64,000 nucleotides of DNA, from the NCBI GenBank assembly GCA_017964255.1, contig JAGCSI010000146.1, positions 5,860-69,859 of the forward strand. Reading direction: 5' to 3'. Shown one piece after another: positions 7,056-62,896 of the stretch. A program made the position numbers and the translations under genes. Numbering within the stretch: position 1 is the stretch's first letter; every line of letters starts with the position of its first letter. The notes beneath the pieces are model-generated. The model was given only the letters and a program-made list of their open reading frames with translations, was not told the DNA's origin and did no database searches. This stretch comes from Bacteroidales bacterium (GTDB taxonomy: Bacteria; Bacteroidota; Bacteroidia; Bacteroidales; WCHB1-69).

Positions 7056-7132
7056 CGTTTGTAAATAAAGTGTTTTTGTCTTTTAGTACAATTTGTACAG
7101 TGCAAGCTATAGGAAAAAATGTTAATCAGAAT

Positions 7133-8167: not shown

Positions 8168-8176
8168 GTAAAAATT

Positions 8177-21109: not shown

Positions 21110-21156
21110 AGATTATAAAATTTGGTGGCGTTTGATCCAATTAGAAATATACAAAG

Positions 21157-22179: not shown

Positions 22180-22186
22180 ATGAACT

Positions 22187-22246
22187 TGCGGCATCAGGCC
22201 TATGCGCAGCCGGAGCCGTTCAGGGGCAGGAGGGCAGCAACACAGC
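22187..22246 (+). promoter_or_regulatory. Leader RNA motif, copy B (5' half only, degenerate)
   Basis: The sequence ATGCGCAGCCGGAGCCGTTCAGGGGCAGGAGGGCAGCAACACAGC aligns block for block with copies C and D. It lacks the third hairpin. Confidence 0.4.
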
Positions 22247-22386
22247 ATGAGTGCAACACTGAACTTAAACAATGAAAATACTAGACTTCGATGAAGCTTG
22301 ATTGTTCAGTAGAAATATAGTTGCTCTGTAAGAGCCCTATAGTATAGAACGTCATAAATGATTGATTATAATAATTCATTTTATTA

Positions 22387-23393
22387 ATGAAGCAACGTAA
22401 TTATTCTATAGATAGTTTAAAATTTATATGCGCTGTCCTTGTCGTTTTTCTTCATACGCAATGGAATTTTCAAGATGAATTCCTACCTATTACGAGATGT
22501 GCCGTTCCATGTTTCTTTATTATTTCAGGATATCTTCTTTATGAAGGAAGTGGGATAAAGCCAGAACGTCTGAAGCGCAATATTTCTCATGTTGTCAAAA
22601 TTTCATTGTGGGCAAGCATATTCTATATTGTTTGGATAGAGACGGTGTCATTACTAACGCTTCGTGAAGTGTGGCTTCCAACATCTAGAAATATTGTGGA
22701 TTGAATTCTCTTTAATGAAACTCCGTTTTGTTTTCATCTTTGGTACCTTTTTGCATATTTATATGTGCTTCTTATTATGATGGTGATCAACAGGTATAAC
22801 TTGTGGAAGTTTCTCTATATAGCAGTTCCGGTTTTGTTATTGACCGACTTAGCGTTTGGAACTTATAGTATTGTTCTATGGGGTTGGGAACTACCATTCT
22901 ATTATGTTAGGAATTTTCTTTTTGTAGGATTGCCCTATTTTGCTATAGGAACGATGATAAAAAAACTAAAGAGGTCTTCGTGTGGCCTCAAGGCCATAAT
23001 AGCCAGGTTCAATGTGCAGTATATGTTTAGTGTTTTAATGTGGTGGGGGTGGTAATTGTTTGTATATTAACAACTTATGCAGAAAAGTCTTTACTACTGT
23101 CTTTAGACTCTTGTGCAACAAGAGAGCATTATTTAAGTTCAACATTCTTGTCAATTTCTATTTTTTTGTTAGCATTGACATATAAAAGTGCCTCTAAGTC
23201 ATTGTTCTCTGAAATGGGCGAAAAAGATTCTTTGTATATCTATATTTTTCATCCATTATTCATTTCCTTGTGCAATGCATTGTTCATAAAGATTCACATG
23301 CAAGCAATATATTTGTGGGTAGCACCAATAATAGTGTTGATAACAACAATGGTTTTTGTTAAGTGTATTAGAAAGTTGAAGTTTGTCAAATGA
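22387..23393 (+). pseudogene. Acyltransferase family 3 (O-acyltransferase) gene broken into three ORFs
   Basis: ORFs 22387..22704, 22765..23055 and 23040..23393 are consecutive hydrophobic pieces. The first begins with the family-typical SLKFICAVLVVFLHT. Stops and frameshifts lie between the pieces. Confidence 0.7.
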
Positions 23394-23520
23394 GTTTCAC
23401 TAACAGTAAAAAAAGGACACATAAACGTGAACCATGTGTTAAAGAATATTAGTGTTTATACAGATGTAATTCGAACAGGAATAAAATATCAATAAATCAT
23501 TAAAGGTTATCTTTTTGAAA

Positions 23521-23652
23521 CAAGCGGCTCGGTCTTTATGCGCAGCCGGAGCCGCTTTAGGGGCGAAAGAGCATCCACACACTCTGGCCGCCCCAGATAT
23601 AGTGGCAGAAAGTTCCCGCTGGTCTCTCAAAAATGGTATAATTCCCAGCGGG
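23521..23652 (+). ncRNA. Candidate structured leader RNA, copy C (three hairpins)
   Basis: H1 is AGCGGCTC/GAGCCGCT (23523-30/23549-56), H2 is GGGGCG/CGCCCC (23560-65/23589-94) and H3 is CCCGCTGG/CCAGCGGG (23615-22/23645-52). The H3 loop TCTCTCAAAAATGGT is conserved. The element lies 68 nt upstream of ugd copy 2. Confidence 0.55.
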
Positions 23653-23719
23653 TCTGCCAATAACTTGCAAGAAAACGATTGCTATGGCAATTGAACTAAA
23701 ATATTGAAATCTTACAATT

Positions 23720-25075
23720 ATGAAAATATCAGTAGCAGGTACTGGCTATGTAGGCATGAGTATTGCCACATTGCTGGCACAACACAATGAAGTAACCGCT
23801 GTGGACGTGGTTCCAGAGCGTGTTGACTTGGTAAATAATAGGAAGTCACCTATACAGGATGACTACATAGAGGATTATCTTGCAAACAAGTCACTCAATA
23901 TCAAGGCAACTCTTGACCAGGAAGCTGGGTATCGTGACGCTGACTTTGTGGTGATAGCAGCGCCAACGAACTATGATGTAAAGAAGAACTTCTTCGACAC
24001 GAGTCATGTTGAAGAGGTAATTGATGCGGTGCTGATGGTGAATCCCGATGCTGTAATGGTTATCAAGAGTACCATCCCCGTGGGCTATACTCGTAGCCTC
24101 TATGTGAAATATGCAGCAAAGGGCGTAAAGAAGTTTAACCTGCTGTTTTCTCCTGAATTTTTGCGTGAAAGCAAGGCTTTGTACGATAATCTCTATCCTA
24201 GTCGTATCATCGTTGGTATTCCTAAGATGATGAGTGACGAGTTCAAGGAGGAAAACGATGCAATTAAGCAAGTAACAGACCTCAACTGGCTCACAGAACG
24301 TGCCCATGTGTTCTCTCAACTCCTCGTAGAGGGAGCTATTGGACCTTCAAAGGACTCTCAGCCTGTACCTGAAACTTGGAACTTGAAAACTGAAACAGAC
24401 AAGGGTATCCCTTGTTTGTTTATGGGTATGAAAGAGGCAGAGGCCGTAAAACTCTTTGCAAATACCTATTTGGCTCTTCGTGTAAGCTATTTCAACGAAC
24501 TGGACACCTACGCTGAAGTGAAGGGTTTGGATACACAGGCCATTATCGAAGGTGTTGGTCTTGACCCTCGTATAGGTACTCACTATAACAACCCCAGCTT
24601 TGGTTATGGTGGTTATTGCTTGCCTAAAGATACCAAGCAGCTGCTTGCAAACTATGAAGATGTGCCAGAAGATTTGATTCGTGCTATTGTAGAGAGCAAC
24701 CGCACACGTAAGGACTACATTGCCGATTCTGTCCTTAAACGTGCAGGTTACTATGATGCAAGCAGTCTTTATGATTCTGAAAGAGAACAGCGGTGTGTGA
24801 TTGGCGTGTATCGTCTTACAATGAAGAGCAACAGCGACAATTTCCGCCAGAGTGCCATTCAGGGCATTATGAAACGCATCAAGGCCAAGGGTGCAGAAGT
24901 AATCATCTACGAACCCGCCTTACCTGATGGAGATACCTTCTTTGGTTCGCTTGTTGTCAATGACCTTGCCACATTCAAGGCCAAGAGTCAAGCAATTATA
25001 GCCAACCGCTATGACAGTTGTCTTGATGATGTAAGGGGAAAAGTTTATACCAGAGATATCTTTAAAAGAGATTAA
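23720..25075 (+). CDS. ugd: UDP-glucose 6-dehydrogenase (copy 2)
   Basis: 451 aa and collinear with copy 1. A 38-nt run is identical between the copies (23780-23817 = 4379-4416). The low-complexity loop differs from copy 1 ([15 protein letters not shown]). Confidence 0.9.
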
Positions 25076-25076
25076 A

Positions 25077-26033
25077 ATGGGATCATATTCAAGAAATTAT
25101 CCGTTTGACTTAGCCCGCTCCATTTGTGTGATATGGATAGTGGGGTTTTGGCACATGTTACAATATTTGCCAGACGAACTGCAACTGAGCGATACGGCAT
25201 TACCCATATTCAAAAGTATTACTATGGGTGTTTTGTCTTGTTTTACCTTTTTGTCAGGATATTTCTTGAAAAAATATGATTTTCATGATATTCAGGATGT
25301 GTTGTTTTTCTATAAAAAGAGATTCCTGCGCTTCTATCCTCTGTTTGTCATAGCAACCTTTAGCCTTATTATTTGCGGAAGTACTATTCGTCAGATAATA
25401 TTAGCAATCGTAGGTTTGTCCCTTCTTTGCCCCCCCCCTATAGAGACATTGTGGTATTTTAGCATGCTCCTTCTCTTCTATTTAATGACCCCTTTATTGA
25501 AAATACGAATGGACGAATGGCGAAAGAATGTAGTTCCAATCGTTCTAATTCTATCAGTTTTAGTGTTAGGTTATATTTTCTTCGACAAAAGGCTTATCAT
25601 TTATTTTCCGTTCTATGTTTTGGGGTTGAATATCACTAATCATACTGTAGATAGAATGCTCAATCCATGGACTTTAGCTGTGTCAATAGCTGTATTTGTA
25701 GTTATATGTATATGGGGCCAATACAACATAATTGTTCAAATCGTTCAGTCATTATGTGGATTGATTGCAATACTATCCTTTTGTAAGCTTGTCTATTTCG
25801 GTGGGTTGCAGCGTTCTGTTTCTTTTGTTGCAGAAGCCTCGATGTGTGCATATCTGTTCCACAGACCTTTATATACCATCGTCTTGGTGGCTTTACGTAA
25901 ACTTACGCAGTATCAATATATGTCTATCCCAATAGCATTGATATCAATAGTTGTTTTGTTCTTAATAGCTTACTTTGTACAAATATTATATAACAGATTG
26001 ATTCAACAAATATCGTTAAAATATGGAAGATAA
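25077..26033 (+). CDS. Acyltransferase family 3 membrane O-acyltransferase
   Basis: 318 aa and multi-TM throughout. The N-terminus (FDLARSICVIWIVGFWH) resembles acyltransferase_3 proteins. Confidence 0.65.
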   Translation: MGSYSRNYPFDLARSICVIWIVGFWHMLQYLPDELQLSDTALPIFKSITMGVLSCFTFLSGYFLKKYDFHDIQDVLFFYKKRFLRFYPLFVIATFSLIICGSTIRQIILAIVGLSLLCPPPIETLWYFSMLLLFYLMTPLLKIRMDEWRKNVVPIVLILSVLVLGYIFFDKRLIIYFPFYVLGLNITNHTVDRMLNPWTLAVSIAVFVVICIWGQYNIIVQIVQSLCGLIAILSFCKLVYFGGLQRSVSFVAEASMCAYLFHRPLYTIVLVALRKLTQYQYMSIPIALISIVVLFLIAYFVQILYNRLIQQISLKYGR

Positions 26034-46768: not shown

Positions 46769-47635
46769 ATGAATATACTGACATTCGACGTAGAAGAATG
46801 GTTCCACCTTCTCGATTTCGATGCCACTCGCACCGAAGCCGACTGGGGGAAGTATGAGGTGAGGATACATGAGAATGTGGAACGCGTGTTTCGAATCCTG
46901 GAAGACACGAATACCAAGGCTACTTTTTTCATCATTGGCTGGATAGCGAAAACCTACCCCGAACTGGTAAAGAAAATAGCTGAGAAGTATCAGATTGGTT
47001 CGCACACGATGACGCATCAATTGGTATGGCAACAGAGTAGGGAAGCGTTCAAAGAGGATGTATCGGCTTCCATCAAACTGTTGGAAGACATTAGCGGTAA
47101 AGCTGTGGAATGTTTCCGGGCTCCGGGATTCTCTATTAGGGAGAGCGAAGCATGGGCTTTTGAAACGCTGGCGGAACTTGGGATAAAGTACGACAGTAGC
47201 GTTTTTCCTGCTCCAGCCTCGCATGGGGGAATGCCAAGTTATGGTGCGGCGGTGCCATCGATAATGGAGGTTGGCGGTGTGCAGATGAAGGAATTCCCTA
47301 TTCCGTATCACTCTTTTGCAGGCCGACATATCGTCTTCAACGGAGGTGGTTATTTCCGTCTGATGCCCTATCGTATCATCAGGAAGTGGACGAAGGAGAT
47401 CGCGGGTCAAGCCCGCGATGAGGGTTATTGTCTGAGTTACATTCATCCTCGTGACCTGGATGCCGGTCAACCTATGTTGGAAGGCCTTCCCGCCACCCGT
47501 AAGTTCAAGAGTTACGTTGGCTTGAAAGGCGCAGAAAACAAGCTACGGAAGTATTTGACGGAATTTGGGTTTATGGATATTGCCACGGCAGAGAAATTGG
47601 TGGATTGGAAGAATGCACCGGTGGTGCAATTATGA
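46769..47635 (+). CDS. Polysaccharide deacetylase family protein (DUF3473-type C-terminus)
   Basis: The ATG at 46769 is preferred (MNILTFDVEEWFH). HTMTH is also present. It carries an in-frame palindromic insert (EIAGQARDEG). Confidence 0.8.
   Translation: MNILTFDVEEWFHLLDFDATRTEADWGKYEVRIHENVERVFRILEDTNTKATFFIIGWIAKTYPELVKKIAEKYQIGSHTMTHQLVWQQSREAFKEDVSASIKLLEDISGKAVECFRAPGFSIRESEAWAFETLAELGIKYDSSVFPAPASHGGMPSYGAAVPSIMEVGGVQMKEFPIPYHSFAGRHIVFNGGGYFRLMPYRIIRKWTKEIAGQARDEGYCLSYIHPRDLDAGQPMLEGLPATRKFKSYVGLKGAENKLRKYLTEFGFMDIATAEKLVDWKNAPVVQL
47396..47424. repeat. Palindromic element GAG-ATCGCGGG-TCAAG-CCCGCGAT-GAGGG, in frame in the deacetylase
   Basis: This 29-mer is identical to 49569-49597 in fnlB and is read in the same frame in both genes. 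Confidence 0.95.
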
Positions 47636-47662
47636 GATTGCGGGTCTTTGCCCGCGATGAGG
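47634..47662. repeat. Palindromic element, intergenic copy abutting the deacetylase stop codon
   Basis: The sequence is GAG-ATTGCGGG-TCTTTG-CCCGCGAT-GAGGT, and it overlaps the TGA at 47633-35. Confidence 0.9.
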
Positions 47663-48794: not shown

Positions 48795-50159
48795 ATGAAA
48801 ATACTAGTTACCGGAGCCAAAGGCTTTGTGGGTAAAAACCTTTGTGCCCAATTAAGGAATATCAGGGATGGCAAAGCCCGGAATTATGCCGTGCAAATTG
48901 AGGAGATTTTCGAGTACGACATTGATTCCACACCAGAGGAATTGGAACTGGCCTGCCGAGAGGCGGACTTTGTATTCAACCTCGCCGGGGTGAACCGTCC
49001 GAAGGAAACCTCTGAGTTTATGGCGGGCAACTTCGGCTTTGCCTCTACTTTGCTTGATACTTTGAAGAAGCACGGCAATAAGTGCCCAATCATGCTCAGC
49101 AGTTCGCAGCAGGCAAGTCTGACGGGACGATTCGGGAATTCCGAATATGGAAGAAGTAAAAAAGCCGGAGAGGATCTCTTCTTGGAGTACGAAAGGGAGT
49201 TTTTGCAAGCAGCTCCTCATGCCGCAGTTGATGCGGCATCTCCAGGAGATTGCGGGTTTTCGCCCGCAATGAGGGATCAAGCCCGCGATGAGGGATTAAG
49301 ACCTCGTGTCTTAATCTACCGTTTCCCGAACCTTTTTGGCAAGTGGTGCCGGCCCAATTATAATTCCGCGGTGGCCACCTTCTGCAACGCTGTGGCGAAC
49401 GATTTGCCTTATACGGTGAATGATCCGTCTGTGGAACTGGAACTTCTGTACATTGATGACCTTGTGGAAGAAATGATTGCCTGTCTGCAGGGAAAGGAGC
49501 ACAGATGTGAGTTTGAAGGGCTGGAAGTAATCCCGACTCCTCATGCCGGACTTGATGCGGCATCTCCTGAGATCGCGGGTCAAGCCCGCGATGAGGGAAT
49601 AAACGTGGGCCGCTATTGTTACGTGCCAACCACCCACAAGGCTACTTTGGGTGAGATTGTGGATTTGCTGAATTCCTTTGCGGCACAGCCGTCAACGCTG
49701 ATGATTCCCGAGATTCCCGCCAACAGTTTTGCAAAGAAACTGTACTCTACATATCTCTCCTATTTGCCTAAGGAGAAGGCCGCCTTTCCGCTGAAGATGA
49801 ACGTAGACGACCGTGGCTCATTCACAGAGCTGGTGCATACGCCCAGTTGCGGTCAGGTGAGCATCAACATTTCCAAGCCCGGCATCACCAAGGGCCAGCA
49901 CTGGCATCACACCAAATTCGAGCAGTTCATTGTGGTAAAGGGTCATGGCCTGATTCAGCAACGTAACCTCAACGACCCTGAGGGCAAGATTTTGGAATGG
50001 GAGGTGAGCGGCGACAACATCCAGGCGGTTCACATGCTCCCGGGATACACCCACAACATCATCAACCTCAGTGACACCGAAGATCTTGTCACTGTCATGT
50101 ATTGCAACGAGATTTTCGATCCCAATAAACCGGATACATTTTTTGAAAAAGTTAAATAA
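48795..50159 (+). CDS. fnlB: FnlB/Cap5F/WbjC-type reductase (SDR plus C-terminal cupin) with two in-frame repeat insertions
   Basis: 454 aa. It has the N-terminal KILVTGAKGFVGKN and a C-terminal cupin region (GITKGQHWHHTK). About 60-85 extra residues are encoded by palindromic elements. Confidence 0.8.
   Translation: MKILVTGAKGFVGKNLCAQLRNIRDGKARNYAVQIEEIFEYDIDSTPEELELACREADFVFNLAGVNRPKETSEFMAGNFGFASTLLDTLKKHGNKCPIMLSSSQQASLTGRFGNSEYGRSKKAGEDLFLEYEREFLQAAPHAAVDAASPGDCGFSPAMRDQARDEGLRPRVLIYRFPNLFGKWCRPNYNSAVATFCNAVANDLPYTVNDPSVELELLYIDDLVEEMIACLQGKEHRCEFEGLEVIPTPHAGLDAASPEIAGQARDEGINVGRYCYVPTTHKATLGEIVDLLNSFAAQPSTLMIPEIPANSFAKKLYSTYLSYLPKEKAAFPLKMNVDDRGSFTELVHTPSCGQVSINISKPGITKGQHWHHTKFEQFIVVKGHGLIQQRNLNDPEGKILEWEVSGDNIQAVHMLPGYTHNIINLSDTEDLVTVMYCNEIFDPNKPDTFFEKVK
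49215..49294. repeat. Composite palindromic element, in frame in fnlB (insert A)
   Basis: It reads CCTC-ATGCCGC-AGTTGAT-GCGGCAT-CTCC, then ATTGCGGG-TTTTCG-CCCGCAAT-GAGGG, then the half-site TCAAG-CCCGCGAT-GAGGG. Confidence 0.9.
49539..49597. repeat. Composite palindromic element, in frame in fnlB (insert B)
   Basis: It reads CCTC-ATGCCG-GACTTGAT-GCGGCAT-CTCC, then ATCGCGGG-TCAAG-CCCGCGAT-GAGGG. Confidence 0.9.
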
Positions 50160-51678: not shown

Positions 51679-52077
51679 ATGAAAATAGACAAAGAACTAT
51701 TGGATGATTTAACGGGGCGTGCCAAGGCATCGCCCCGTTTGCGGATGAATTGCGACCTTCGCAACGGCGCCGAGGACAGTTCCCAGCGTATGCTCAACGC
51801 TATCGAGCCTGGTACTGTGCTGCCGATTCATCGCCATAGGGAGAGCTCCGAGACGGTGGTGATGCTGCGTGGCAAAGGCCGTTGGAATTACTTCGATGAC
51901 AACGGCAACCTCACAGAGTCTTTCCTCCTTTCCGCCGATGGCGACCTCCGTGGCCTCTCCGTCCCGCAAGGCCAGTGGCATAACGCCGAGAGCCTCGAAA
52001 CAGGCACGGTGATCCTGGAATGCAAGAATGGGAAGTATGACCCGAAGGGGACGGAAGAGTTTCGGAATAAAAGTTAG
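51679..52077 (+). CDS. wbuC: WbuC-family cupin-fold protein
   Basis: The ATG at 51679 is preferred. It has a cupin HRH (LPIHRHRESSE) and QGQWHN. Its position after fnlC is the usual one for wbuC. Confidence 0.7.
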   Translation: MKIDKELLDDLTGRAKASPRLRMNCDLRNGAEDSSQRMLNAIEPGTVLPIHRHRESSETVVMLRGKGRWNYFDDNGNLTESFLLSADGDLRGLSVPQGQWHNAESLETGTVILECKNGKYDPKGTEEFRNKS

Positions 52078-52152
52078 TATTGAGATAGGTATGGAGTTGT
52101 GAGAGTGCGTCAGTAACTACGGCATGCCAAAGTGGAAGATGATAACACATAT
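51944..52152. repeat. Left boundary repeat: wbuC 3' end plus 40 nt, fused to a 34-nt piece of the distal AbiJ-like gene
   Basis: 51944-52117 aligns with 61746-61918 with scattered substitutions. 52119-52152 is identical to 62749-62782. Confidence 0.85.
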
Positions 52153-52296: not shown

Positions 52297-55200
52297 ATGT
52301 CTAGATCTGAGAAAATAAACAACAAAATAAACAACATTGTCTCAACCAATGCTTTCAACGACAGATTTACGTCGTTGACACGTTCTATTAAGATTTTTCT
52401 TCCTTCCAAAGAGTCAAATAGAAAAGACGAGGTTGAAAATAACAATTTTGATGATTTTGTTGGACGTGAGCGTTTGATGGAACGATTGTATAATTGGCTT
52501 TCTGACAAAAATAAAGATAGCGGGTCTTATTTGGTAACAGGTTTTCGAGGGATGGGCAAAACAAGTCTCGTAACCCGAGTAACAGATCGGTTAACACGTG
52601 AAATTAAGCAGAAGAGTGAGCGATACTACTTTATATTGCTCTTGCTACCTTTACTGTGTCTAGGAATTATTTATTCAATTGACATTGTCAATACACTCCA
52701 AGGTTATGTTTATGTGATTTTTTTCATGTCTCTTTTCCTGCCTCTCGGGTGTTTGGGATACTGTAACAAGTATAATAAAAAAAGATACAAGTATCCCAAT
52801 AGGGATAAATTTGAAGAGGAACATGTCAGTAAAATGGCAAGAGGTAAAGACGATGACAAGAGCGAAAAAAAATATAGCAATATCAAGGTTTCAATTAATT
52901 TAGGCCACGAAGTACTCAATGAACGTGATGTCTTGAGCATGATTGCAACCAGTGTAAGGAACAAATACAAGGTGTTCGTCAAAAGCATACAGCCTCATTT
53001 TTTTCACAACATGATAATTGTACTCATTGTGGGAATATTTGGCGCTGGTGGTGCTCTTTGGGTCGAAAAAGAGGTTGTTAATGTGGCTGGATTTAAGAAA
53101 TATTCAGATAATATAGAAGTATATCGAGAGAAAGCTGTTGATTGTAATGCTGATGGTGAATTTCTTGAAATCGAAGGTAATCATGGCGAATCGTGGTTTC
53201 CGAGATTAATGTACAACATTGGACATGCTTTTCATGAAACATACAGGAATAACCCCTTTTCAAGAATGTTGTTCAAATTTTTAATGTATGGTTCTTTTGT
53301 TGCCTTATTTTGGTGGTTGGGAAGTTTTTTAAATTTGTTGATACCAAGACGCTCAACGCCACGAAAAGTTCTTCGACGGCTTGATACATTAGTGGAACGG
53401 ATTGTAGCCACTACCGAGGAGGTGTCTGGTGCGACATCTGTTGCTGAAAAAAATGTATTGTCGGTTTCTTTCTTCAATAGACAAAGGCATAAGATTAGGC
53501 CTATTGCTGATATTCGAGAGATTGAGACTGAATTAGCTGAAATTATCAATCAGATTAATTCTGATGGGTGCCCAAACAATTATAGAGCTCACTTTATTGT
53601 CGTGTTTGATGAAATGGATAAAATTGATCCTGCAATAATGGAACAACACAATGTTAATGAAATGCCGGAATTTACGGATTCTGTGAAAGGATTTCCGGAT
53701 GGCATGGATTCCCGCGAACGAAGGAGAAATGTGTTGAAACTATTGGCAAACATCAAACTTTTTGTTTCGACAGCTAAAGCAAAGTTTATCTTCATCTCTG
53801 GCCGTGAACTTTATGATGCATATCTTGCAGATCTCAGTGATCGCGACTTTGCCATCAGCAGTATTTTTTCAGGAGTTATTAATGTGGATAGTTTCCTTAC
53901 TCCGGAAGGTGGGCAAACAGATGTACGCTCCATGTCGGAATGGTACATCGCTAATCAATTGATACCATTTACATGGCTCAAGGAGAAAGAAATAATGAAT
54001 GCTGAAGGGAGAATGAAAGGACAAAGTGAAATGAATAAGGAAAAGGCTGTGTTAAAACAAGAACGTCCCTCCTTGCGTTGGTATTACGAGTATTTGGTTG
54101 ACGAATGCAAAAATGACCCTCAAGAAGCTACTTATGTCATAGGTTTTCTCCATATTTTTGCTGCTTATTTGACACATATCAGCAATGGATCTCCTAAAAA
54201 GATTTTCTTGTATTTTGACAAATACATTCGACTTGCCAAAGACTGTTTGCCCATGAATGACTGGAAGGATGAGTGTATTGTGGGGCAAGAGATAAGGAGT
54301 GATAAGAGACAAAGAGTACTTTTTTTTGAGCCTATTCAGCAGAAAACCATTAATTTTGTTTATTATCTCTCTAATCCGATCATGGGTACCATAACCAATG
54401 ATATGAGCAATTATGGAGACCGGTTCTTGGTTTCCTTATCATTTATCATTGACCATATCTATAAGTATCACAGCCGAAGTTTTTCTTGGCGAAACTTGGA
54501 GCAAATTCCTGATCTGCTGAAGACCAGTAAAGCACCAGAACTTCGTGATGAGATGACCTCAATTATGGAGTATTTGACGCAGGTGCATATTTCTCCAATA
54601 CTCATTGGATTGAACGAATATAAGTTTCACAAAAGCATTGCGGAGGAGATTTCTGTAATGTCAAGAATGTCAGATGAAGCTTCTGCCATTTTTAATTTCA
54701 CACTAGACGAATCGCTGTCGGTAATTCAATATAACACCCGTCTGCTCAATTATTATAAGAAACTTGATAAAGAAAGTAGTCAAGATAATAATACACAAAA
54801 AGAACAGAAGTACATGCCCCTTATTGCCCGTATTCATTCTAATTTAGGGGATTTGCATTTCTGGGATGAGGATTATTACTCTGCGACATTGGAGTATAGG
54901 GCAGCTATAGAGACGCTTCCTGACAGCAATGAGGATGAATCTGGATTTCTTACACGGGTTAGGTGTATGTTAAAATTAGGACTTGCCTATGAATTACGTA
55001 AACTTTATCCCAATGCATACCAAACTTATTGTCGTCTCATTAATTTGTTGATTAGCAAACGTTGGGTCCACGAAGAAGAATTTGGTCTTTCAGTGATGGA
55101 TGCTCGTATCAAAGGTTGGCAAGAGAAGCGTCAGGTAATGATATATCCCCCTACACCAGAATATTCTTGGTATGAAGACGCAAACTTCGCACATCAATTC

Positions 55201-57897
55201 AAACACCCTTTGTTTGAAGGTAATTACAATCTTCCGGAAAATACATCTTTTAGTGCTAATTTTGATGGTATTATATCGACTTTTGCCAGAGACTTAACTG
55301 TTCAAAAGTCACAGACTATCAATACCCTCACTCTTTTTGAGGAAATAAGGTATTTGTATCAGTCAATTCTTGCAAAATTAAGCATCTTGGAAAAAATGGG
55401 TATGAGTGGAATCACCCAAACTAATATTGATGTAGCGGAGGGAGAATTCAGGACAATACATAAGAGTGTAAATTTCAGAGAGAAATTTATTATTGCTGCT
55501 GATTTTTTTAGAAAACTGGCAGAGATACTTTATTACAAAAACAATCTTACAATTTTAACACAGAACCAAGATGCCTTTTACGTTTCAGCTTATTATTTTG
55601 ATCAGGACTTAATGGCTAATCTTGACGATTTTTGCACACAACGTAGTGACAATGCACATACTTCAAAACATGATATAAGATATTTCTTTTATATACTGAA
55701 TAATTCAGCATCTGATAAAATACCAAAAGTAGATTACTCTTCACTAGGGAATCGGTGTACATTGGATCGCCTTTATCAATATCTTGATGACAATGTTGAT
55801 TTTTTTCTTAACGATGATAAGACCTTACAAGCGGAAAATAGAAAAATAGATAGGGAAAGGGTTGCTAAAAACGTCAAAAGATACCTGAAGTACAACATTG
55901 AAAATGTGATACCTAATTCCAGAAAGGTCCTTTATTTTAGAAGTGTTGAGGCGTGTGATAATCACAGCAAATTGCTCCGTCAATGTGGGTTGCGAACGCC
56001 TTGTTATGCTTGTAAGTATTATGTGCGTAGTCTTCGGATTTTGGCAGATAATATGTTTGTAGATAAGGATGTACTGGATAATACGATTACTAAATCCATG
56101 GGTATCATTAAACATTCGTTCAAAAACAAATTGCTTTATACTAATTCAAGCAATATTCGAGCATTGGCACAGACTCTAGAGGGTTTTGGTAATGTGATGT
56201 TTTCATGCGCTTCGGGTAATAATCGTGAAGGGAAAAAGCACTATTCGCCGAATGGTATTAGCAGGAGCGTCATAAAATTATTGCAGGAATTAAGTTTTAA
56301 GGATACTGAGAAGGAAGAGTTGGAGACAATAATTGAAGGGGAAAAAGAATTAATGAAATGCCTTCCCTTAAGTCGTCTTGATAAAAGTATTCTATATTAT
56401 TGGGATGCATATCGGTTCTATCTGATGGATGCTTGTTACAACGATGCTGTTGGCTGCTTGAACAAAATTCTCAATCTCCTTGTCTATTACATAGAAGTGT
56501 TGTGTTATTATGAAGATGGGTCTAATTTACAATGGGGAGATGAAAAAGATACTGTTGTTGCATTGATTGGAGATAAAGAGTTCAATGATTCTTTTATAGC
56601 AACTCTTTTTCATTTGATTGTGAGGTACACAAGTTATAAATATGACCTAACCAATTTAAGTGAAATAAATGAGTTGAAATGGATATACAGTAAGGAGATT
56701 CGTCATAATATAGACCTTACCCGTTTGTCTTTGTTTCCTGCTGTACGTTCTGCGTGGCTTCGTGCAATTGAAATCCGGGCAAAAGGACTCCGCTTTCTTG
56801 TCAAACAAGGATTCATGGGATATGAACAAGATGATTATCTGAAATTCATTAAATTGACATACCCTCTCATTACTCCTCAACGACGTTATGAAACAACATT
56901 CTATGAAGAGGTTATGGGATATTATACTAAAATGAGGTATAATGACCATATAATGAACATTCTCTTTGGGGGTAATCCGCTTATTGACAAAAAAGCAAGG
57001 GATTATTCAGACAAATATCACATTGTTTTCTATGAGAAGTTATACGATTTTCTTGACTCTCGTGTTTTTTCTGTAAAAAAGGATTATCAGTTTTTTGATA
57101 TTGATATTGAACATGATGTGAATAAGCGTTTGGACTTGATTGAGTTTTTGATTCACGATTCGCTCGTTTGCATTACCAATATGGTTAATGTGTTTACACC
57201 GCACAATCATCTAACATCATATTCGAAGAGTTTTGTCGGTGTTGTATATAACTTTTTTTGGGAATGGTCACGAAAATATGAATTTTTATATACTCTGTAT
57301 CAGTATCATGAACTTATAAAAAAAGGATGTAAAAAAGAAGCCGAAAAGATTGTGGGAAATATATGGGGTAGCAGCAGTGTTCAAAGTGCTGGTGCGGGCG
57401 AGGGGTTAAGAAGACGTTTGGGGCAAGCGATGAGTAAATGTAGCGATTGGATTACACAGAATGAAACAGAAACGGAAAAGGAAAGTCGTTATGGTTCCCG
57501 AAGTGATCGCTTATACGAGCGCTTGCGTCATGACATAGATGACATAACCATTAATACTATTTTTAGTAATTATGCGGCCGAAATGGCATTGAAATACTAT
57601 CAAAAAGCAGTGGAGGCTAATACGGAAGGAGAGTCATACAGGGAAATGATAGGTGCAATGCATTTTTTGAATGATGACCTTAACAATGATACGTGCCAAT
57701 TTAACATTGCATGTGATAGATTCCTCCTCAATTGTGGAGTTGTTGCTGAGCAACACCGTCGTCTTGAGAAGCTTTACAAGAATTCGAATGTTTACAGCCT
57801 TCGCAAGGCATATATTGAAGGTCCAGACAAATTGAGCAGAGAAACTATTGCCCAAAATCAATTTGACAGGTCGCAATTTATTAATTCAGAATATTAA
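52297..57897 (+). CDS. Giant KAP-type P-loop NTPase (TM helices inserted between the Walker A and B motifs) with a ~1400-aa helical-repeat/TPR-like C-terminal region
   Basis: 1866 aa. Walker A GFRGMGKTS is at aa 82-90 and Walker B FIVVFDEMD at aa 433-441. Four hydrophobic segments lie between them (aa ~110-130, 137-156, 235-255, 323-349). TPR-like stretches occur further downstream (YYSATLEYRAAIETL, LGLAYELRKLYPNAYQTYCRLI). Confidence 0.75.
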   Translation: MSRSEKINNKINNIVSTNAFNDRFTSLTRSIKIFLPSKESNRKDEVENNNFDDFVGRERLMERLYNWLSDKNKDSGSYLVTGFRGMGKTSLVTRVTDRLTREIKQKSERYYFILLLLPLLCLGIIYSIDIVNTLQGYVYVIFFMSLFLPLGCLGYCNKYNKKRYKYPNRDKFEEEHVSKMARGKDDDKSEKKYSNIKVSINLGHEVLNERDVLSMIATSVRNKYKVFVKSIQPHFFHNMIIVLIVGIFGAGGALWVEKEVVNVAGFKKYSDNIEVYREKAVDCNADGEFLEIEGNHGESWFPRLMYNIGHAFHETYRNNPFSRMLFKFLMYGSFVALFWWLGSFLNLLIPRRSTPRKVLRRLDTLVERIVATTEEVSGATSVAEKNVLSVSFFNRQRHKIRPIADIREIETELAEIINQINSDGCPNNYRAHFIVVFDEMDKIDPAIMEQHNVNEMPEFTDSVKGFPDGMDSRERRRNVLKLLANIKLFVSTAKAKFIFISGRELYDAYLADLSDRDFAISSIFSGVINVDSFLTPEGGQTDVRSMSEWYIANQLIPFTWLKEKEIMNAEGRMKGQSEMNKEKAVLKQERPSLRWYYEYLVDECKNDPQEATYVIGFLHIFAAYLTHISNGSPKKIFLYFDKYIRLAKDCLPMNDWKDECIVGQEIRSDKRQRVLFFEPIQQKTINFVYYLSNPIMGTITNDMSNYGDRFLVSLSFIIDHIYKYHSRSFSWRNLEQIPDLLKTSKAPELRDEMTSIMEYLTQVHISPILIGLNEYKFHKSIAEEISVMSRMSDEASAIFNFTLDESLSVIQYNTRLLNYYKKLDKESSQDNNTQKEQKYMPLIARIHSNLGDLHFWDEDYYSATLEYRAAIETLPDSNEDESGFLTRVRCMLKLGLAYELRKLYPNAYQTYCRLINLLISKRWVHEEEFGLSVMDARIKGWQEKRQVMIYPPTPEYSWYEDANFAHQFKHPLFEGNYNLPENTSFSANFDGIISTFARDLTVQKSQTINTLTLFEEIRYLYQSILAKLSILEKMGMSGITQTNIDVAEGEFRTIHKSVNFREKFIIAADFFRKLAEILYYKNNLTILTQNQDAFYVSAYYFDQDLMANLDDFCTQRSDNAHTSKHDIRYFFYILNNSASDKIPKVDYSSLGNRCTLDRLYQYLDDNVDFFLNDDKTLQAENRKIDRERVAKNVKRYLKYNIENVIPNSRKVLYFRSVEACDNHSKLLRQCGLRTPCYACKYYVRSLRILADNMFVDKDVLDNTITKSMGIIKHSFKNKLLYTNSSNIRALAQTLEGFGNVMFSCASGNNREGKKHYSPNGISRSVIKLLQELSFKDTEKEELETIIEGEKELMKCLPLSRLDKSILYYWDAYRFYLMDACYNDAVGCLNKILNLLVYYIEVLCYYEDGSNLQWGDEKDTVVALIGDKEFNDSFIATLFHLIVRYTSYKYDLTNLSEINELKWIYSKEIRHNIDLTRLSLFPAVRSAWLRAIEIRAKGLRFLVKQGFMGYEQDDYLKFIKLTYPLITPQRRYETTFYEEVMGYYTKMRYNDHIMNILFGGNPLIDKKARDYSDKYHIVFYEKLYDFLDSRVFSVKKDYQFFDIDIEHDVNKRLDLIEFLIHDSLVCITNMVNVFTPHNHLTSYSKSFVGVVYNFFWEWSRKYEFLYTLYQYHELIKKGCKKEAEKIVGNIWGSSSVQSAGAGEGLRRRLGQAMSKCSDWITQNETETEKESRYGSRSDRLYERLRHDIDDITINTIFSNYAAEMALKYYQKAVEANTEGESYREMIGAMHFLNDDLNNDTCQFNIACDRFLLNCGVVAEQHRRLEKLYKNSNVYSLRKAYIEGPDKLSRETIAQNQFDRSQFINSEY

Positions 57898-57909
57898 AAC
57901 CATCAGAAT

Positions 57910-58893
57910 ATGCGAGAAAAAATAAAAATTATAGTTAGAGCAAGTTTTGATAACATGGGAACTGTTTCGGTCACTGATGTAGCAGAACAAACCAAGATAG
58001 ATCCTGTGGAAGGGGATATTTATGAAGTGGAAAAAGGGGTGGACTTATATTTGATAGCCAATGCAAAAGAAAGCCATCGATTTGTTGTGTGGAACGATGG
58101 TACGATAGAAAATAATCGCAAAATACAAGTAACAGAAGAAAATGAATATATGGCTGTTTTCACACCAATAACCAAATCGAACTGCCTATGCCTACTGTTA
58201 AATAAACTATTACATGCTAATCCTATTTCTGTTCAAACTTCGTTTGCAGGTAACGAGTCATTTAACAATGCCAACAGCAATATTTCCAATCAAGGTAATG
58301 CTAAAGAAATAGAAAATAAGACGAAAAATTTAATTTTTAAAGGATTCAATCCATTTTGGATGTTCTTGATATTGTTATTGACAATTATTTCGATATCTTG
58401 GTTTTTGTTGAGTCCATTGAAACATTACATTGAAGAATTGAATCATTTGGATGCTGTTGATTTTATTCAGAAAGCAGGGCCTATACTTTTGTATTGCGTC
58501 ATAATAGGCGTGATTGTTATGGTGTCAATCATTATGGCTGTTAGAAGCCTTCTTCCGTATTTTGGGAAAAAGTTAGATTTTGAGCAAAAAATGTGGGAAC
58601 TCCAATATAGGAATCAAATTCGATTCCAAGATGAAGACCGAAAATATGAGCGTCTCGGTCATGAAATGGAGATGGCTCTCCATGACAAGAAGGAAAAGGC
58701 TATAATTGAAGAGAATGTGCGTGACAATGAACATAAGCGCAAACTAGATATTAAAGAGCGAGAGCGCATTGCTGAATTGAGTAAAGTTATACTTGAGTTG
58801 GCCAAAATAAAAAATACAATAACTATTAAAGATTCCGATTGTAATAATAAGACTATTGTAATTGAAAAGAGTGTTTTGACAAATGACAAATGA
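57910..58893 (+). CDS. Two-TM protein with an N-terminal beta-rich domain and a charged coiled-coil tail; partner of the giant NTPase
   Basis: 327 aa, starting 12 nt after the giant ORF. The N-terminus (HRFVVWNDG...YMAVFTPI) is reminiscent of InlB B-repeat-type domains. The TMs are FWMFLILLLTIISISWFLL and ILLYCVIIGVIVMVSIIMAV. The tail is rich in E/K/R. Confidence 0.65.
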   Translation: MREKIKIIVRASFDNMGTVSVTDVAEQTKIDPVEGDIYEVEKGVDLYLIANAKESHRFVVWNDGTIENNRKIQVTEENEYMAVFTPITKSNCLCLLLNKLLHANPISVQTSFAGNESFNNANSNISNQGNAKEIENKTKNLIFKGFNPFWMFLILLLTIISISWFLLSPLKHYIEELNHLDAVDFIQKAGPILLYCVIIGVIVMVSIIMAVRSLLPYFGKKLDFEQKMWELQYRNQIRFQDEDRKYERLGHEMEMALHDKKEKAIIEENVRDNEHKRKLDIKERERIAELSKVILELAKIKNTITIKDSDCNNKTIVIEKSVLTNDK

Positions 58894-59424: not shown

Positions 59425-60159
59425 ATGACATACTCATTTAAACCTGTCGAACACCATATCTATCAGAATACTTTTCTGAAAGATGTACGTGTTGCGGTTG
59501 AGTTCTCACCGGTTGATACTGATTCTGTGAAGAAGGATCAGTTACAGAAATTCTTTAATAAATTTAAGGGAACGAACATCGATGTGAATGATTTCCTGAC
59601 GAAAGAAAACATCAGTGTTATTTCTAGCAATAGGGAGGTGGAGTTCCTCTTTTCTTTAAGTTATGCCGAGGCAAAGTTGAGTACTCCTTTCTATAGTACT
59701 TTTGACTCTGCCATCCAGTATTGGCAGTTGTTGCTTGATTACATGAATGCTATTGGAGTATGTCGGATGGAGGGGATTATGGTTCGCAAATACAGTGAGT
59801 TCTCTTTCCGAAGTAATAATGCTGATTTTAAGTTTAAAGATGTGATGAGCGAGGTTTTTAGTGGTGAATTGATGGAAAAAATACCCCAAAACACTTCTTT
59901 TAACGGGCTAAATAGTTTTGAAAAAACATGGATGGAAAAGGATGAAGACAGTGGCTCTACTTTTAATGTCGTTTTTGGTTTTAAGAAAGCTGATACCAAT
60001 ACTAAATATGACCATCTGACGCTTGTAACATCTTTAGAAATGAACAACGGTCCCATTGGTCTGGATGGTTTTATAGATAAAATCAAAGAATATAATGCGA
60101 TTTTGTATAATGCTTTTCATTGGTGTGTAAAAGAAGAGATTATAAAAGAAATGAATTAA
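59425..60159 (+). CDS. Hypothetical protein (possibly TIGR04255-like; weak)
   Basis: 244 aa. It is the first of three tightly packed genes. It has no recognisable catalytic motif. Confidence 0.55.
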   Translation: MTYSFKPVEHHIYQNTFLKDVRVAVEFSPVDTDSVKKDQLQKFFNKFKGTNIDVNDFLTKENISVISSNREVEFLFSLSYAEAKLSTPFYSTFDSAIQYWQLLLDYMNAIGVCRMEGIMVRKYSEFSFRSNNADFKFKDVMSEVFSGELMEKIPQNTSFNGLNSFEKTWMEKDEDSGSTFNVVFGFKKADTNTKYDHLTLVTSLEMNNGPIGLDGFIDKIKEYNAILYNAFHWCVKEEIIKEMN

Positions 60160-60165
60160 GGAACG

Positions 60166-60747
60166 ATGAAAAAAACTTTATATACTGCACAAACATTTTC
60201 CCTGCGTGAAGACTTTAAGAGGCGATTGCGTAAGGGTGTGATGATTGCATTTATGTTTACTGCAACAGTGGCCAGTGCGTCATCTGTTGATAGCTACGAT
60301 GTTGAAAATAATGTTGTGAATACAGAAACAATAGCAAGAATTCCAACAAAAAGCACGCAGACCAACGGTATTATATCTGTTGAGCTTTTGGCCGATAGTT
60401 ATCCTGAGTTCAAAACCGTGCAGGCATTCGATAGACTTATCACACGTTTACCCGAGGCTTTATCTATGGAACCTGTAATGCGTTTTGTGACAGAGGGTAT
60501 AGGGAACATTGATGCTGAACGTGTTGTCATGGATTGTGATACGGAAAACGAGGTGTTAAATGTTTCGTACAAATTGCGTGACAATATGCTTCTGTCTATT
60601 TCCAAACCGCTTGAAACTATGAATGATCAATTTGTGATGTTCAATGTGTATCATGGTCGGGATCTATTGGTATCGGATAGTGCCAGCATAGAATTATTAT
60701 CGGAGTATATTCATAACGTTGAGAATAGAATCAAAGAGTTGGCATAG
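60166..60747 (+). CDS. Hypothetical protein with an N-terminal membrane anchor or signal
   Basis: 193 aa. A basic stretch is followed by the hydrophobic segment GVMIAFMFTATVASASS. Confidence 0.55.
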   Translation: MKKTLYTAQTFSLREDFKRRLRKGVMIAFMFTATVASASSVDSYDVENNVVNTETIARIPTKSTQTNGIISVELLADSYPEFKTVQAFDRLITRLPEALSMEPVMRFVTEGIGNIDAERVVMDCDTENEVLNVSYKLRDNMLLSISKPLETMNDQFVMFNVYHGRDLLVSDSASIELLSEYIHNVENRIKELA

Positions 60748-60750
60748 CGA

Positions 60751-61524
60751 ATGGCAAAACCGCAATACCCAAACGAGATTCTTCCACAACAAGGTTGGCG
60801 GCAATGCATCTGCACACAAGATTTGTTGGATAGTTGCCCTGACGCAATGTTGGGTCGGAAAATGGATGGTACGAAAGAACAATGTATCAATCCAGAAGAC
60901 GGCTCTATATACATGAACGTTTTACCAACAGGAAGCATTCCCAATCTTTCATGCAGTTTGTTGGGTACTTTCTTCAAAGTGGATCATCTTCACTTCTTGC
61001 CAGACAATGCGGGAAAAGCCGCTTGGGAGGAAGGAACACTTGTGGGTAAGGAAATGCTGTGTGAAGAGAATTACTATCATTTTCCTGAAGTTACCGTTGT
61101 GGGTTGGAAAGTGAAGGACGTTTCTAGTAAGGAATTGCCATATAATCGCACGTTTGAGAAGCCACAGTTATATGAAGAATTCAAAGAGGAGGTTGAAGAT
61201 GTAGCTGAAATACGCAAGATGGTCGTTTATTTAGATACTTGGGAAAAACTGAAAACCAATCCAGCCAAAAAAAAACAGCGTATTGTTGAGGTTATGGGTG
61301 TAGCTAAGGTGAATCATGCTCCAACGATGTTGAATTATTGGCATTTCACCATTGATATTTATACTGCCGAAAATGACTTGGATCCATTGTTGAAGGTCAG
61401 TGATGGATGGCGTAAGTATATAGCGGCAAATCTATGCGACTTCTTGAGACGTTCCTATGATATTATTACAGACGATGCTCAGGTTGCGCCTGTTGATAAA
61501 AAATCGTTGTGGGTTAAAGAATAG
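60751..61524 (+). CDS. Hypothetical protein
   Basis: 257 aa, starting 3 nt after the upstream gene. The N-terminal third is Cys-rich (CICTQDLLDSC, C at several positions). Confidence 0.55.
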   Translation: MAKPQYPNEILPQQGWRQCICTQDLLDSCPDAMLGRKMDGTKEQCINPEDGSIYMNVLPTGSIPNLSCSLLGTFFKVDHLHFLPDNAGKAAWEEGTLVGKEMLCEENYYHFPEVTVVGWKVKDVSSKELPYNRTFEKPQLYEEFKEEVEDVAEIRKMVVYLDTWEKLKTNPAKKKQRIVEVMGVAKVNHAPTMLNYWHFTIDIYTAENDLDPLLKVSDGWRKYIAANLCDFLRRSYDIITDDAQVAPVDKKSLWVKE

Positions 61525-61745
61525 TTGTTGAGTAAGTTTCTGGTAAAAGCCATCTTGTGAAGTTGTTGGTAAAGACTATGGACGGAAAGCACATCATATT
61601 CAGCGGAGGCTTCATTATCGTTGAAAATGAATTACCTTTCATTGATGAAGTGGAAGTAAGTCTTGTTGAGGCATAAGAGAGAGGGGATAAAGAATTACAA
61701 TGACAAGCAACCATACAGACTCCGTCCATCTCTCATTTGATGTCA

Positions 61746-61918
61746 ACCTTCGGGGCCTTTCCGTCCCTCAAGGCCAGTGGCACAACGCCGAGAGCCTCGA
61801 AACCGGCACAGTAATCCTGGAGCGCAAGAACGGGAAGTATAACCCGAAAGGGACGGAGAAGTTTCGAAATAAAGTTAGTATTGAGACAGGTATGGAGTTG
61901 TGAGAGGGCGTCAGTAAT
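61746..61918 (+). pseudogene. Orphan wbuC 3' fragment plus its downstream 40 nt (right boundary repeat)
   Basis: It encodes LRGLSVPQGQWHNAESLETGTVILERKNGKYNPKGTEKFRNK, matching the wbuC C-terminus. A more degenerate similarity extends back to about 61708. Confidence 0.85.
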
Positions 61919-61963: not shown

Positions 61964-62896
61964 ATGATCAGTTTATTTTCAGAAAGGAATGGTTACGCTA
62001 AGTCCTCTGATTACATAATCAAAGGAAAGATTACGCACAACATAGTCAATGCGCTTTCATCATGTTTTACGCAGTTGAAACAAGATTTGGATAATGCCGA
62101 TTATTTGATAAGCGAAGCGAATGGTGATGAGGACTATTTAATTTTTACAAACGGATCGTTTTACAAGATGGATAGGACGGTGTGGACGGATTTTATGAAC
62201 AGAAGAGCTGACAAGTATGTTGGTGGTATCAATATGCGCGAATTTGATGCAGTGCAAGTTTGTTTGCTTAACAAGAAAAATAAGTGGTATAAGAAACTTG
62301 ATTGTGTAGAGGTTGCAATAGAGTTTATGAGAACTCACTATACAGATTCCATAAGAAAGAAGGTTGTTGAAGATTTTGTTCAAGAAATTAATAGGCAGTT
62401 TGAGAGATTGAAATATGGATATAGAATTGTTCAAGGTAAGATAGTAGATATAATCTCAGACATTGAGATACAGTCAATAAACAAGTCGGTTGAGGTTAAC
62501 GCAAAAAATAATGTATCTGTTCACATGCTCCAGGCCTTGAATTTATATGCATTAAAACCTAATCCAGACTATAGAAATTCAATAAAGGAATCTATCACCG
62601 CTGTTGAGACTTTGTTTCGCGAGTTGACAAATGAGAGTACATTTGGGAAGGCATATGGTAAAATCAAAAAACAGATTTCAATCCATCCAAGATTGGAAGA
62701 AATGATACAGAAAATGTATGACTACACAAATCAAAAGGAAACAGGGATACGGCATGCCAAAGTGGAAGATGATAACACATATTTGCCAACAGCACAAGAA
62801 GCTACGCTAATGCTGGTTATATGTAGTGCAACAATCAATTATGTGAGAGAAAAAATGGGAACGTTGCGAGGTGAGTTATCTCAGGAATTATCGTAA
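61964..62896 (+). CDS. AbiJ-N-terminal-domain-like abortive-infection-type protein (weak call)
   Basis: 310 aa. The N-terminus (LFSERNGYAKSS) resembles the FS.R.GY signature of AbiJ NTD4-type proteins. The C-terminal GIRHAK region may be HEPN-like. Confidence 0.4.
   Translation: MISLFSERNGYAKSSDYIIKGKITHNIVNALSSCFTQLKQDLDNADYLISEANGDEDYLIFTNGSFYKMDRTVWTDFMNRRADKYVGGINMREFDAVQVCLLNKKNKWYKKLDCVEVAIEFMRTHYTDSIRKKVVEDFVQEINRQFERLKYGYRIVQGKIVDIISDIEIQSINKSVEVNAKNNVSVHMLQALNLYALKPNPDYRNSIKESITAVETLFRELTNESTFGKAYGKIKKQISIHPRLEEMIQKMYDYTNQKETGIRHAKVEDDNTYLPTAQEATLMLVICSATINYVREKMGTLRGELSQELS

Follow-up and report, generated by a model that had tools for sequence, protein, structure and literature searches.

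Tmn carries two transmembrane (TM) helices within its P-loop domain together with solenoid arms, and acts as a decameric pore through Mg2+ export and plasmolysis (PMC13001434). TM helices inserted into the P-loop domain are also the hallmark that the title of the 2004 paper by Aravind et al., as cited by PMC13552941 and PMC8195603, names for the KAP nucleoside triphosphatases (NTPases). KAP NTPases with uncharacterised C-terminal regions (EF_KAP) protect E. faecalis, and the Walker B motif is needed for this protection (PMC13552941); PifA is reported to act by membrane permeabilisation. Some Avs proteins have pore-forming membrane effectors (PMC13001434), and a census of STAND proteins published in 2026 comprises 589 clades (PMC13581612). 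Membrane-acting phage defences are poorly understood, and it was not until 2026 that Tmn and the KAP NTPases were linked to a mechanism or phenotype. Here, we describe a gene from a 64,000-nucleotide (nt) stretch of DNA of a Bacteroidales bacterium (contig JAGCSI010000146.1, positions 5,860 to 69,859; hereafter the window), which encodes a membrane-embedded STAND-like NTPase of 1866 amino acids (aa) (52297..57897, + strand; open reading frame (ORF) call and homologs) and is followed by a small gene for a second membrane protein. The NTPase belongs to a real, large and unnamed family of giant, mostly Bacteroidota ATPases that resemble NLR/STAND sensors.

Like Tmn, the window NTPase is one large polypeptide whose P-loop domain is N-terminal and has TM helices inserted after Walker A; long alpha-helical solenoid arms follow in the cytosol, there is no enzymatic effector, and both proteins are encoded in defence contexts. 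It differs from Tmn in having no sequence-profile match to Tmn/YobI, in its AAA_16/STAND-like core, in its two hairpin insertions (four TM helices) with a variable predicted periplasmic loop, and in its size, about twice that of Tmn, often with a 2-TM coiled-coil partner. With the KAP proteins (PifA of the F plasmid, EF_KAP, Pfam PF07693) it shares membrane association, a P-loop NTPase domain that has TM segments within it or next to it, and a large uncharacterised C-terminal region, and KAP proteins have been shown or proposed to act in Walker B-dependent phage exclusion; however, the size of the window NTPase, its candidate GxP/winged-helix module and its TPR-like solenoid point to STAND. 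The Avs proteins (PMC13581612) provide a third comparison: an AAA_16/NPHP3_N/nSTAND-type core, a helical domain, a TPR-like array and a defence-island location are common to both, and the window NTPase has a candidate for the winged-helix element; but it has no effector domain (nuclease, protease, TIR, Sir2 or TM module) ahead of the NTPase, its membrane-spanning elements sit inside the nucleotide-binding domain, its C-terminal array is conserved across the family where that of Avs is typically hypervariable, and it has no PADLOC Avs match.

A STAND-type P-loop domain split by membrane hairpins

The reading frame is open throughout its 5.6 kb (ORF calls in the window), and both genes, with all of their features described here, lie on the + strand. 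A motif scan and a Kyte-Doolittle hydropathy scan of the 1866-aa NTPase placed the Walker A motif or P-loop, GFRGMGKTS, at 52540..52566 (aa 82-90, including K88) and the Walker B motif, FIVVFDEMD, at 53593..53619 (aa 433-441), approximately 345 aa apart. An earlier note, made from the sequence alone, had reported this uninterrupted frame and this motif spacing, and both were recovered at the same nucleotides; the Walker B acidic pair that it numbered D439/E440 is D438/E439, one residue earlier. Walker A coincides with a Pfam AAA_16 match, and its residues G82, R84, G85, M86, G87 and K88 are invariant in the 29-sequence and in the 55-sequence alignment of relatives; D438, E439, D441 and K442 of Walker B are likewise invariant in alignments of relatives. 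Two of the features by which STAND proteins are recognised are present, namely a STAND/AAA_16-type P-loop domain that carries Walker A together with a Walker B of the hhhhDE form, and a large C-terminal repeat array.

Two AlphaFold2 (AF2) models were made, one of the N-terminal 1100 aa and one of the C-terminal 916 aa. In the N-terminal model, strand beta1 (aa 76-81) leads into the P-loop and helix alpha1 (88-99), followed by TM1 (105-127) and TM2 (134-165); beta2 (195-201) and alpha2 (209-229) precede TM3 (232-261), a loop (262-299) and TM4 (to 348); then come helices, a disordered linker (373-400), alpha3 (406-421) and beta3, the Walker B strand (432-438). Strands beta4 (496-501, 'FIFISGRE') and beta5 (526-529) and a helical bundle ending at NGSPKK (630-635) complete this part, after which a beta hairpin region (644-677) gives way to helical repeats. 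Only around 50 aa precede the nucleotide-binding domain, and neither Pfam nor PADLOC has a domain match there.

The first TM hairpin (52609..52764; TM1 aa 105-127, TM2 aa 134-156) lies between alpha1 and beta2 and is seen both by hydropathy and as AF2 helices (aa 105-127 and 134-165); the second (52999..53337; TM3 aa 235-258, TM4 aa 323-347; hydropathy and AF2) lies between alpha2 and the Walker B strand. Hydropathy gave strong segments at aa 113-131, 138-156 and 238-256, to which AF2 adds a fourth membrane-length helix at aa ~320-348, TM4 being the least hydrophobic of the four. These two hairpins, one after alpha1 and one after alpha2, divide the AAA_16/STAND-type P-loop domain, so that the catalytic pieces would all stay on the cytoplasmic face. 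Basic residues are found in the NTPase sequence beside the cytoplasmic ends of all four TM helices, and the positive-inside rule predicts a topology with cytoplasmic catalytic pieces and a periplasmic segment at aa 259-322.

TM helices between the Walker motifs are a family-wide trait and not a chance feature of one protein: among 246 full-length relatives, at least two hydrophobic segments separate the motifs in 245 and exactly four in 157, with a median distance from Walker A to Walker B of 363 aa. The earlier note's description of four TM segments inside the P-loop domain is thus upheld. The majority-residue frequency peaks in the cytoplasmic parts of the nucleotide-binding domain (0.65-0.73), and it is 0.29-0.34 in the TM helices (0.29 in the first hairpin). 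The predicted periplasmic loop (53071-53262, aa 259-322) is the most variable part of the NTPase, with a majority-residue frequency of 0.27 and a length of 26-98 aa across 29 relatives.

Two further motifs fall within the core. Strand beta4 carries the conserved 'FIFISGRE' motif (53782..53817, aa 496-507; AF2 strand 496-501), in which G502 and E504 are invariant and R503, a candidate sensor-1 arginine, is conserved at 90% or more. The NGSPKK sequence (54184..54201, aa 630-635), with N630, G631, P633 and K635 invariant in relatives, is a candidate STAND 'GxP' motif by its invariance and its place in the AF2 secondary structure; taken with the beta hairpin that follows (aa 643-680), which may be winged-helix-like, it would match STAND anatomy.

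On the native NTPase, Pfam returned only AAA_16 (36.1 bits; cut-off 32.6), and the match was confined to the Walker A region because the inserts break it. When insert-spliced cores from 13 diverse members were aligned and scanned with profiles, AAA_16 matched all 13 (best E=1.8e-11), the alignment covering profile positions 2-147 of 167 and so both Walker motifs; weaker matches were obtained to AAA_22 (13/13), NPHP3_N (11/13), ATPase_2 (10/13) and nSTAND1 (9/13), and further sub-threshold ones to nSTAND6, iSTAND, NB-ARC and NACHT. A PDB sequence-profile search with the spliced core gave nothing below E=0.1, and NCBIfam gave only P-loop-level noise (DnaX, Orc1/Cdc6) far under its cut-offs. Foldseek with the 1100-aa N-terminal model retrieved mostly TPR proteins, with the archaeal STAND-TPR structure 6mfv as a weak match (E=2.3e-3, probability 0.77). 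Because AAA_16 matches 13 of 13 spliced cores and the KAP and PADLOC results are near-null, the core is STAND/AAA_16-like, not KAP and not YobI.

The earlier note had called the protein KAP-type. It agrees with KAP in architecture alone, in that TM helices lie within the P-loop domain, but not in profile similarity: Pfam KAP_NTPase gave no match on the native NTPase at E<=1 and matched only 2 of the 13 spliced cores, at E=0.4, and comparing the core profile with that of a genuine KAP NTPase in hhalign returned a probability of 0.3%. That genuine Pfam KAP_NTPase gene (601 aa; 7088-8893 of locus L082) precedes, by 108 nt and on the same strand, a homolog that is 65% identical to the window NTPase. 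Its position there, the four TM helices in the P-loop domain and the large repeat-rich C-terminal region speak for a divergent KAP family member that would act like PifA or EF_KAP; with AAA_16 matching every spliced core and no PADLOC model, PifA included, matching at E<=1, such a relationship is already disfavoured and we consider it very improbable. The Pfam search that the earlier note had proposed speaks for a STAND-type class, with AAA_16 above its cut-off, and against KAP_NTPase.

A distant member of the YobI/Tmn family would have the same layout, with TM helices after Walker A and then long cytosolic alpha-solenoid arms (PMC13001434), but it is less probable still. No YobI family appeared in the Pfam lists for the native NTPase or the spliced cores, and no Tmn match was found in PADLOC for either; on the spliced cores, PADLOC gave no Tmn or PifA among its matches and nothing significant. 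The TM helices are four in number at two insertion points, not one hairpin, and the AAA_16/STAND-like core has the candidate GxP-like motif and winged-helix-like element. The earlier note had recognised no named system, and PADLOC, Pfam, NCBIfam and literature searches likewise yielded none; neither these databases (PADLOC in its version 2.0) nor the papers searched describe such a family, a comparison outside which the supplementary tables of PMC13581612 lie.

The helical tail and the small membrane partner

Downstream of the core, aa 681-1866 (54337..57894) are predicted by profile match, Foldseek and AF2 to form a cytoplasmic all-alpha solenoid that is TPR-like at its start. A PDB profile search with the full-length NTPase gave a weak match to the TPR protein NASP (profile positions 826-906, E=0.0026), and the model of the C-terminal 916 aa contains helices only, with a predicted local distance difference test score (pLDDT) of 81.6 and a predicted template modelling score (pTM) of 0.86. 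Foldseek with this model found no PDB or BFVD match at E<1e-3, returning generic solenoids only. No enzymatic domain was found in the tail using Pfam, PADLOC or NCBIfam, and the C-terminal model contains no enzyme fold. The large helical-repeat tail of STAND/Avs-like layout, without a recognisable enzyme domain, that the earlier note had read from the sequence is therefore supported by the all-alpha model. Conservation over aa 681-1100 is 0.63 versus 0.65-0.73 in the core, and a variable loop combined with a conserved solenoid is the reverse of the usual STAND sensor pattern.

Invariant alignment columns mark two sites in the tail. A cysteine cluster, C1220 and C1236-x2-C1239 (plus C1304), is encoded at 55954..56013 and is a possible structural metal site. 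An acidic C-terminal motif, NTEGxxY ... YFLNDDLNNDTCQF ... R, spans aa 1775-1815 (57619..57741), with E1777, G1778, Y1781, D1793, D1794, D1798 and R1808 invariant. At locus L053, the acidic-motif region is a separate 250-aa ORF (8021-8770), 20 nt after a 1739-aa ORF, as a result of either a frameshift or a natural split.

The partner gene (57910..58893; ORF call and hydropathy) begins 12 nt past the NTPase stop and encodes a protein of 327 aa with a predicted N-terminal cytoplasmic domain, a TM hairpin (58342-58548; aa 145-167 and 191-213, by hydropathy) and a coiled-coil-like charged C-terminal tail, of which 43% of residues are K, R, E or D. It has no match in Pfam, PADLOC, NCBIfam or the PDB, and tblastn recognises it only where the adjacent NTPase is 58% identical or more. 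A similarly built protein, with a TM hairpin and a charged helical tail, is nonetheless encoded directly downstream of the NTPase in many Bacteroidales loci, several of these partner-like proteins having an 'L-x-PY[FW]' motif after TM2; in a clade of NTPases of 32-33% identity, the partner-like protein is instead encoded directly upstream. The A/T-rich spacer of 11-12 nt between NTPase and partner is kept across lineages, and a partner-like gene adjoins the NTPase in 8 of 8 independent close contexts. Judged by this arrangement, NTPase and partner form an operonic unit of two genes in Bacteroidales of the gut and rumen, with a partner that is fast-evolving.

Over a wider range of loci the association is looser. 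An automated screen found a partner-like gene in 24 of 76 distinct loci, and 2-3 more are visible by eye, giving approximately 24-27; few are seen in Saprospiraceae, Cytophagales and Flavobacteriales loci. Because the partner is adjacent in only these ~24-27 of 76 loci, the ATPase is the core of the family and the partner a lineage-specific accessory. The two-gene unit suggested in the earlier note therefore stands as regards an operonic 2-TM coiled-coil-like partner, 12 nt away in the window and present in all eight close contexts, but it is not universal.

Distribution, genomic contexts and proposed role

A total of 446 homologs of the NTPase were found, full-length down to 31% identity; a look-up of homolog names returned only 'hypothetical protein'. 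A profile of the N-terminal 700 aa matched 1458, 1023 and 603 clusters (50% identity) at E<=1e-3, 1e-10 and 1e-30, respectively, and the best 150 clusters are nearly all 1400-2200 aa in length. The family is present in 151 of 185,579 species representatives (~0.08%), and its carriers are almost all Bacteroidota; a small number belong to Calditrichia, Kapaibacterium and Aminicenantia. Phocaeicola sartorii DSM 21941 and Xylanibacter muris are among the carriers. Searches of 72,556 plasmids and of 50,697 phage genomes found no homolog. The NTPase is an accessory, horizontally mobile gene, as judged by its sporadic distribution, the repeat-bounded low-GC (guanine plus cytosine) block in which it lies, a relative on an integrative and conjugative element (ICE), and its mixed neighbours.

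Defence or mobile-element genes lie at most 9 kb from the NTPase in 7 of 8 independent close contexts. Context 1 is the window, with PDC-S32, Menshen NsnABC and another STAND protein; context 2 (L082) has the KAP NTPase, HipBA, an integrase and a transposase; context 3, at a capsule locus, has TIR, ThsB, Nmad2, HMUDK_hel, radical SAM and HEPN genes; and context 4, within a capsule locus, has SLFN and a reverse transcriptase. Context 5 (L087) is a cluster of FHA, kinase, PP2C and MotA genes. In context 6 the gene is on an ICE, between toxin/immunity genes of a type VI secretion system (T6SS) and GmrSD plus conjugation genes; context 7 has SIR2-TPR and a transposase; and context 8 has AAA_15, SIR2, HNH, AbiC and PIN. 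The surroundings in the window agree with the mobile defence cargo suggested in the earlier note.

We tentatively propose, at a little below an even chance, that the NTPase is a membrane-integrated STAND-like defence sensor-effector that would work in a manner analogous to Tmn or PifA. The solenoid would hold the ATPase off until a trigger binds; nucleotide-dependent oligomerisation of the nucleotide-binding domains could then gather the intradomain TM hairpins and the partner hairpins into a ring, which would leak ions or otherwise collapse membrane homeostasis and so arrest infection. Membrane disruption as the effector is modelled here on Tmn, PifA and the Walker B-dependent KAP defence proteins, and a defence role is more likely than this specific pore mechanism.

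Several observations weigh against a defence sensor-effector. The N-terminal AF2 model has a pLDDT of 69 and a pTM of 0.53 and is of moderate confidence, and no PADLOC family (Tmn, PifA, Avs and bNACHT among them) matched the native NTPase at E<=1. The partner is missing beside most environmental Bacteroidota homologs. The solenoid is about as conserved as the core, unlike the fast-diversifying sensors of many Avs proteins, and this conservation would also fit the binding of a conserved host component. At 30 more distant loci, the three nearest genes per side comprise 124 Pfam families among 150 proteins, of which ~6% match defence models (a raw count; AbiL, KwaB, PtuA, PDC-S01 and AAA_21 ATPases), and many of these neighbours are housekeeping proteins (ribosomal proteins, metabolic enzymes and ABC transporters). 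Finally, several contexts adjoin capsule loci and one lies in the FHA/kinase/PP2C cluster, which could point to envelope signalling.

The last of these points bears on an alternative, in which the protein would be an envelope ATPase, anchored in the membrane and serving signalling or scaffolding without an immune role, for instance by coupling a conserved ligand in the cytoplasm to functions of the capsule, outer membrane or secretion, and the islands would reflect recombination hotspots at capsule ends. Capsule genes adjoin the NTPase not just in the window but also in another three or four lineages (contexts 3, 4 and 7 among them), with DUF6016 recurring, and the strong conservation of the solenoid and the housekeeping surroundings of many distant members are compatible with such a function. 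At L087 (1302-9004 and 15753-17672), a 57%-identical homolog is located amid FHA, Ser/Thr kinase-FHA, MotA_ExbB, FHA-trypsin and PP2C genes, and the PP2C stop codon overlaps the start of the NTPase homolog by 4 nt; this cluster hints at phospho-signalling control in that lineage. An envelope role is nevertheless unlikely in our estimate, given that the family is sporadic (~0.08% of species representatives), that it has no conserved neighbourhood apart from the small partner, that the window gene is within a repeat-bounded low-GC insertion outside the capsule operon proper, and that defence genes adjoin in seven of the eight close contexts. Even as an envelope signalling protein, it would still be an unusual membrane-integrated STAND.

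DUF6016 was found beside NTPase homologs of 34-37% identity at L006 (9323-9697), L084 (7562-7958, frameshifted) and L023 (24509-24895). Because DUF6016 adjoins the NTPase in these three other lineages, the end of the capsule locus seems to be a recurrent insertion site, or hotspot, for islands carrying the NTPase family.

Another hypothesis is that the gene serves the mobile element that carries it, through entry exclusion, addiction or inter-bacterial competition/immunity, and is not anti-phage. The relative on the ICE, between T6SS toxin/immunity and conjugation genes, is an abundant one (349 sequences in its cluster); repeats flank the window block, and HipBA, an integrase and a transposase lie beside the L082 relative. 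However, most loci lack conjugation or T6SS genes, and the searched plasmids and phage genomes contain no homolog, so that we regard a service to the carrier element as improbable.

The proposed defence sensor-effector admits a broader formulation, which we consider possible but on balance doubtful: the family would be a hitherto unclassified, Bacteroidota-wide lineage of NLR-like (STAND) immune receptors integral to the membrane, arisen independently of KAP and YobI/Tmn, in which oligomerisation, the activating step of all STAND proteins, would directly assemble a channel that the co-evolving 2-TM coiled-coil subunit joins. The hypervariable periplasmic loop may then add a second, extracytoplasmic input. 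If so, this would be a third, unrelated NTPase lineage with TM helices in the ATP-binding domain, a design that must then have arisen repeatedly, and a STAND/NLR switch with the membrane as its output, in which the coupling of oligomerisation to a channel becomes directly testable. Bacteroidota of the gut, the rumen and the environment carry the family in abundance (600 or more clusters at 50% identity). Its hosts include those of crAss-like phages, and the defence repertoires of these hosts are under-explored.

The locus in the window

From 52 kb on, the GC content of the window is 0.33-0.38, versus 0.47-0.53 in the upstream capsule genes, in agreement with the AT-rich island of the earlier note. 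The NTPase block sits after a capsule-biosynthesis cluster of which DUF6016 is the last gene. A repeat search and blastn identified a left direct repeat at 51905..52152, made up of the 3' end of this DUF6016/cupin gene plus 75 nt, and a right direct repeat at 61707..61917, 84% identical over 212 nt, and so substantiated the duplicated boundaries noticed earlier. The ~9.6-kb low-GC block between the two repeats contains the NTPase, the partner and three matchless ORFs; no integrase lies within it. The same searches found a perfect 35-nt copy of the left-repeat end (52118-52152) at 62748..62782, within the 3' portion of the PDC-S32 ORF, suggesting that insertions were nested at a single site. 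Logan contig L002 (10.6 kb) starts and ends with the same 30-nt repeat, which is most simply explained by an assembly break at the repeat but could represent a circular form.

The three ORFs in the block are packed closely together at 59425-60159, 60166-60747 and 60751-61524 (244, 193 and 257 aa), and have no Pfam, PADLOC or PDB match. We considered them as conserved companions of the NTPase, but they occur only with an identical NTPase gene (L001/L002) and are not part of the core; from their arrangement, they could be an independent three-gene system.

Beyond the right repeat, 61964-62896 encodes a 310-aa protein that matches PADLOC PDC-S32 (E=2e-69) and Pfam AbiJ_NTD4, in line with the AbiJ-like neighbour of the earlier note, whose DUF262 neighbour also proved genuine: this DUF262/GmrSD_N gene, just outside the window end, is NsnA of Menshen. 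Past the window end, at 20999-24326 and 24793-25601, the corresponding contig L001 carries a complete Menshen system (NsnA, 9e-126; NsnB, 3e-88; NsnC, 9e-25) and, after it, the gene of an unrelated 1949-aa AAA_16/NPHP3_N STAND protein, and the defence island thus extends beyond the window. This protein was considered as a paralog of the window NTPase, but its first 269 aa, present in L001, are unlike the N-terminal 400 aa of the NTPase.

Promoter and terminator scans gave counts at most ~1.4 standard deviations over shuffled expectation; Bacteroidota promoters are not sigma-70-like, so these counts are uninformative on operon structure. The capsule region upstream contains GC-rich palindromic repeats of 29-31 nt (e.g. 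GAGATCGCGGGTCAAGCCCGCGATGAGGG), within and between capsule ORFs, which a repeat listing places, without a strand, at 47396-47424, 47634-47662, 49213-49294 and 49537-49597; they have the look of repetitive extragenic palindromic (REP) elements or miniature inverted-repeat transposable elements (MITEs).

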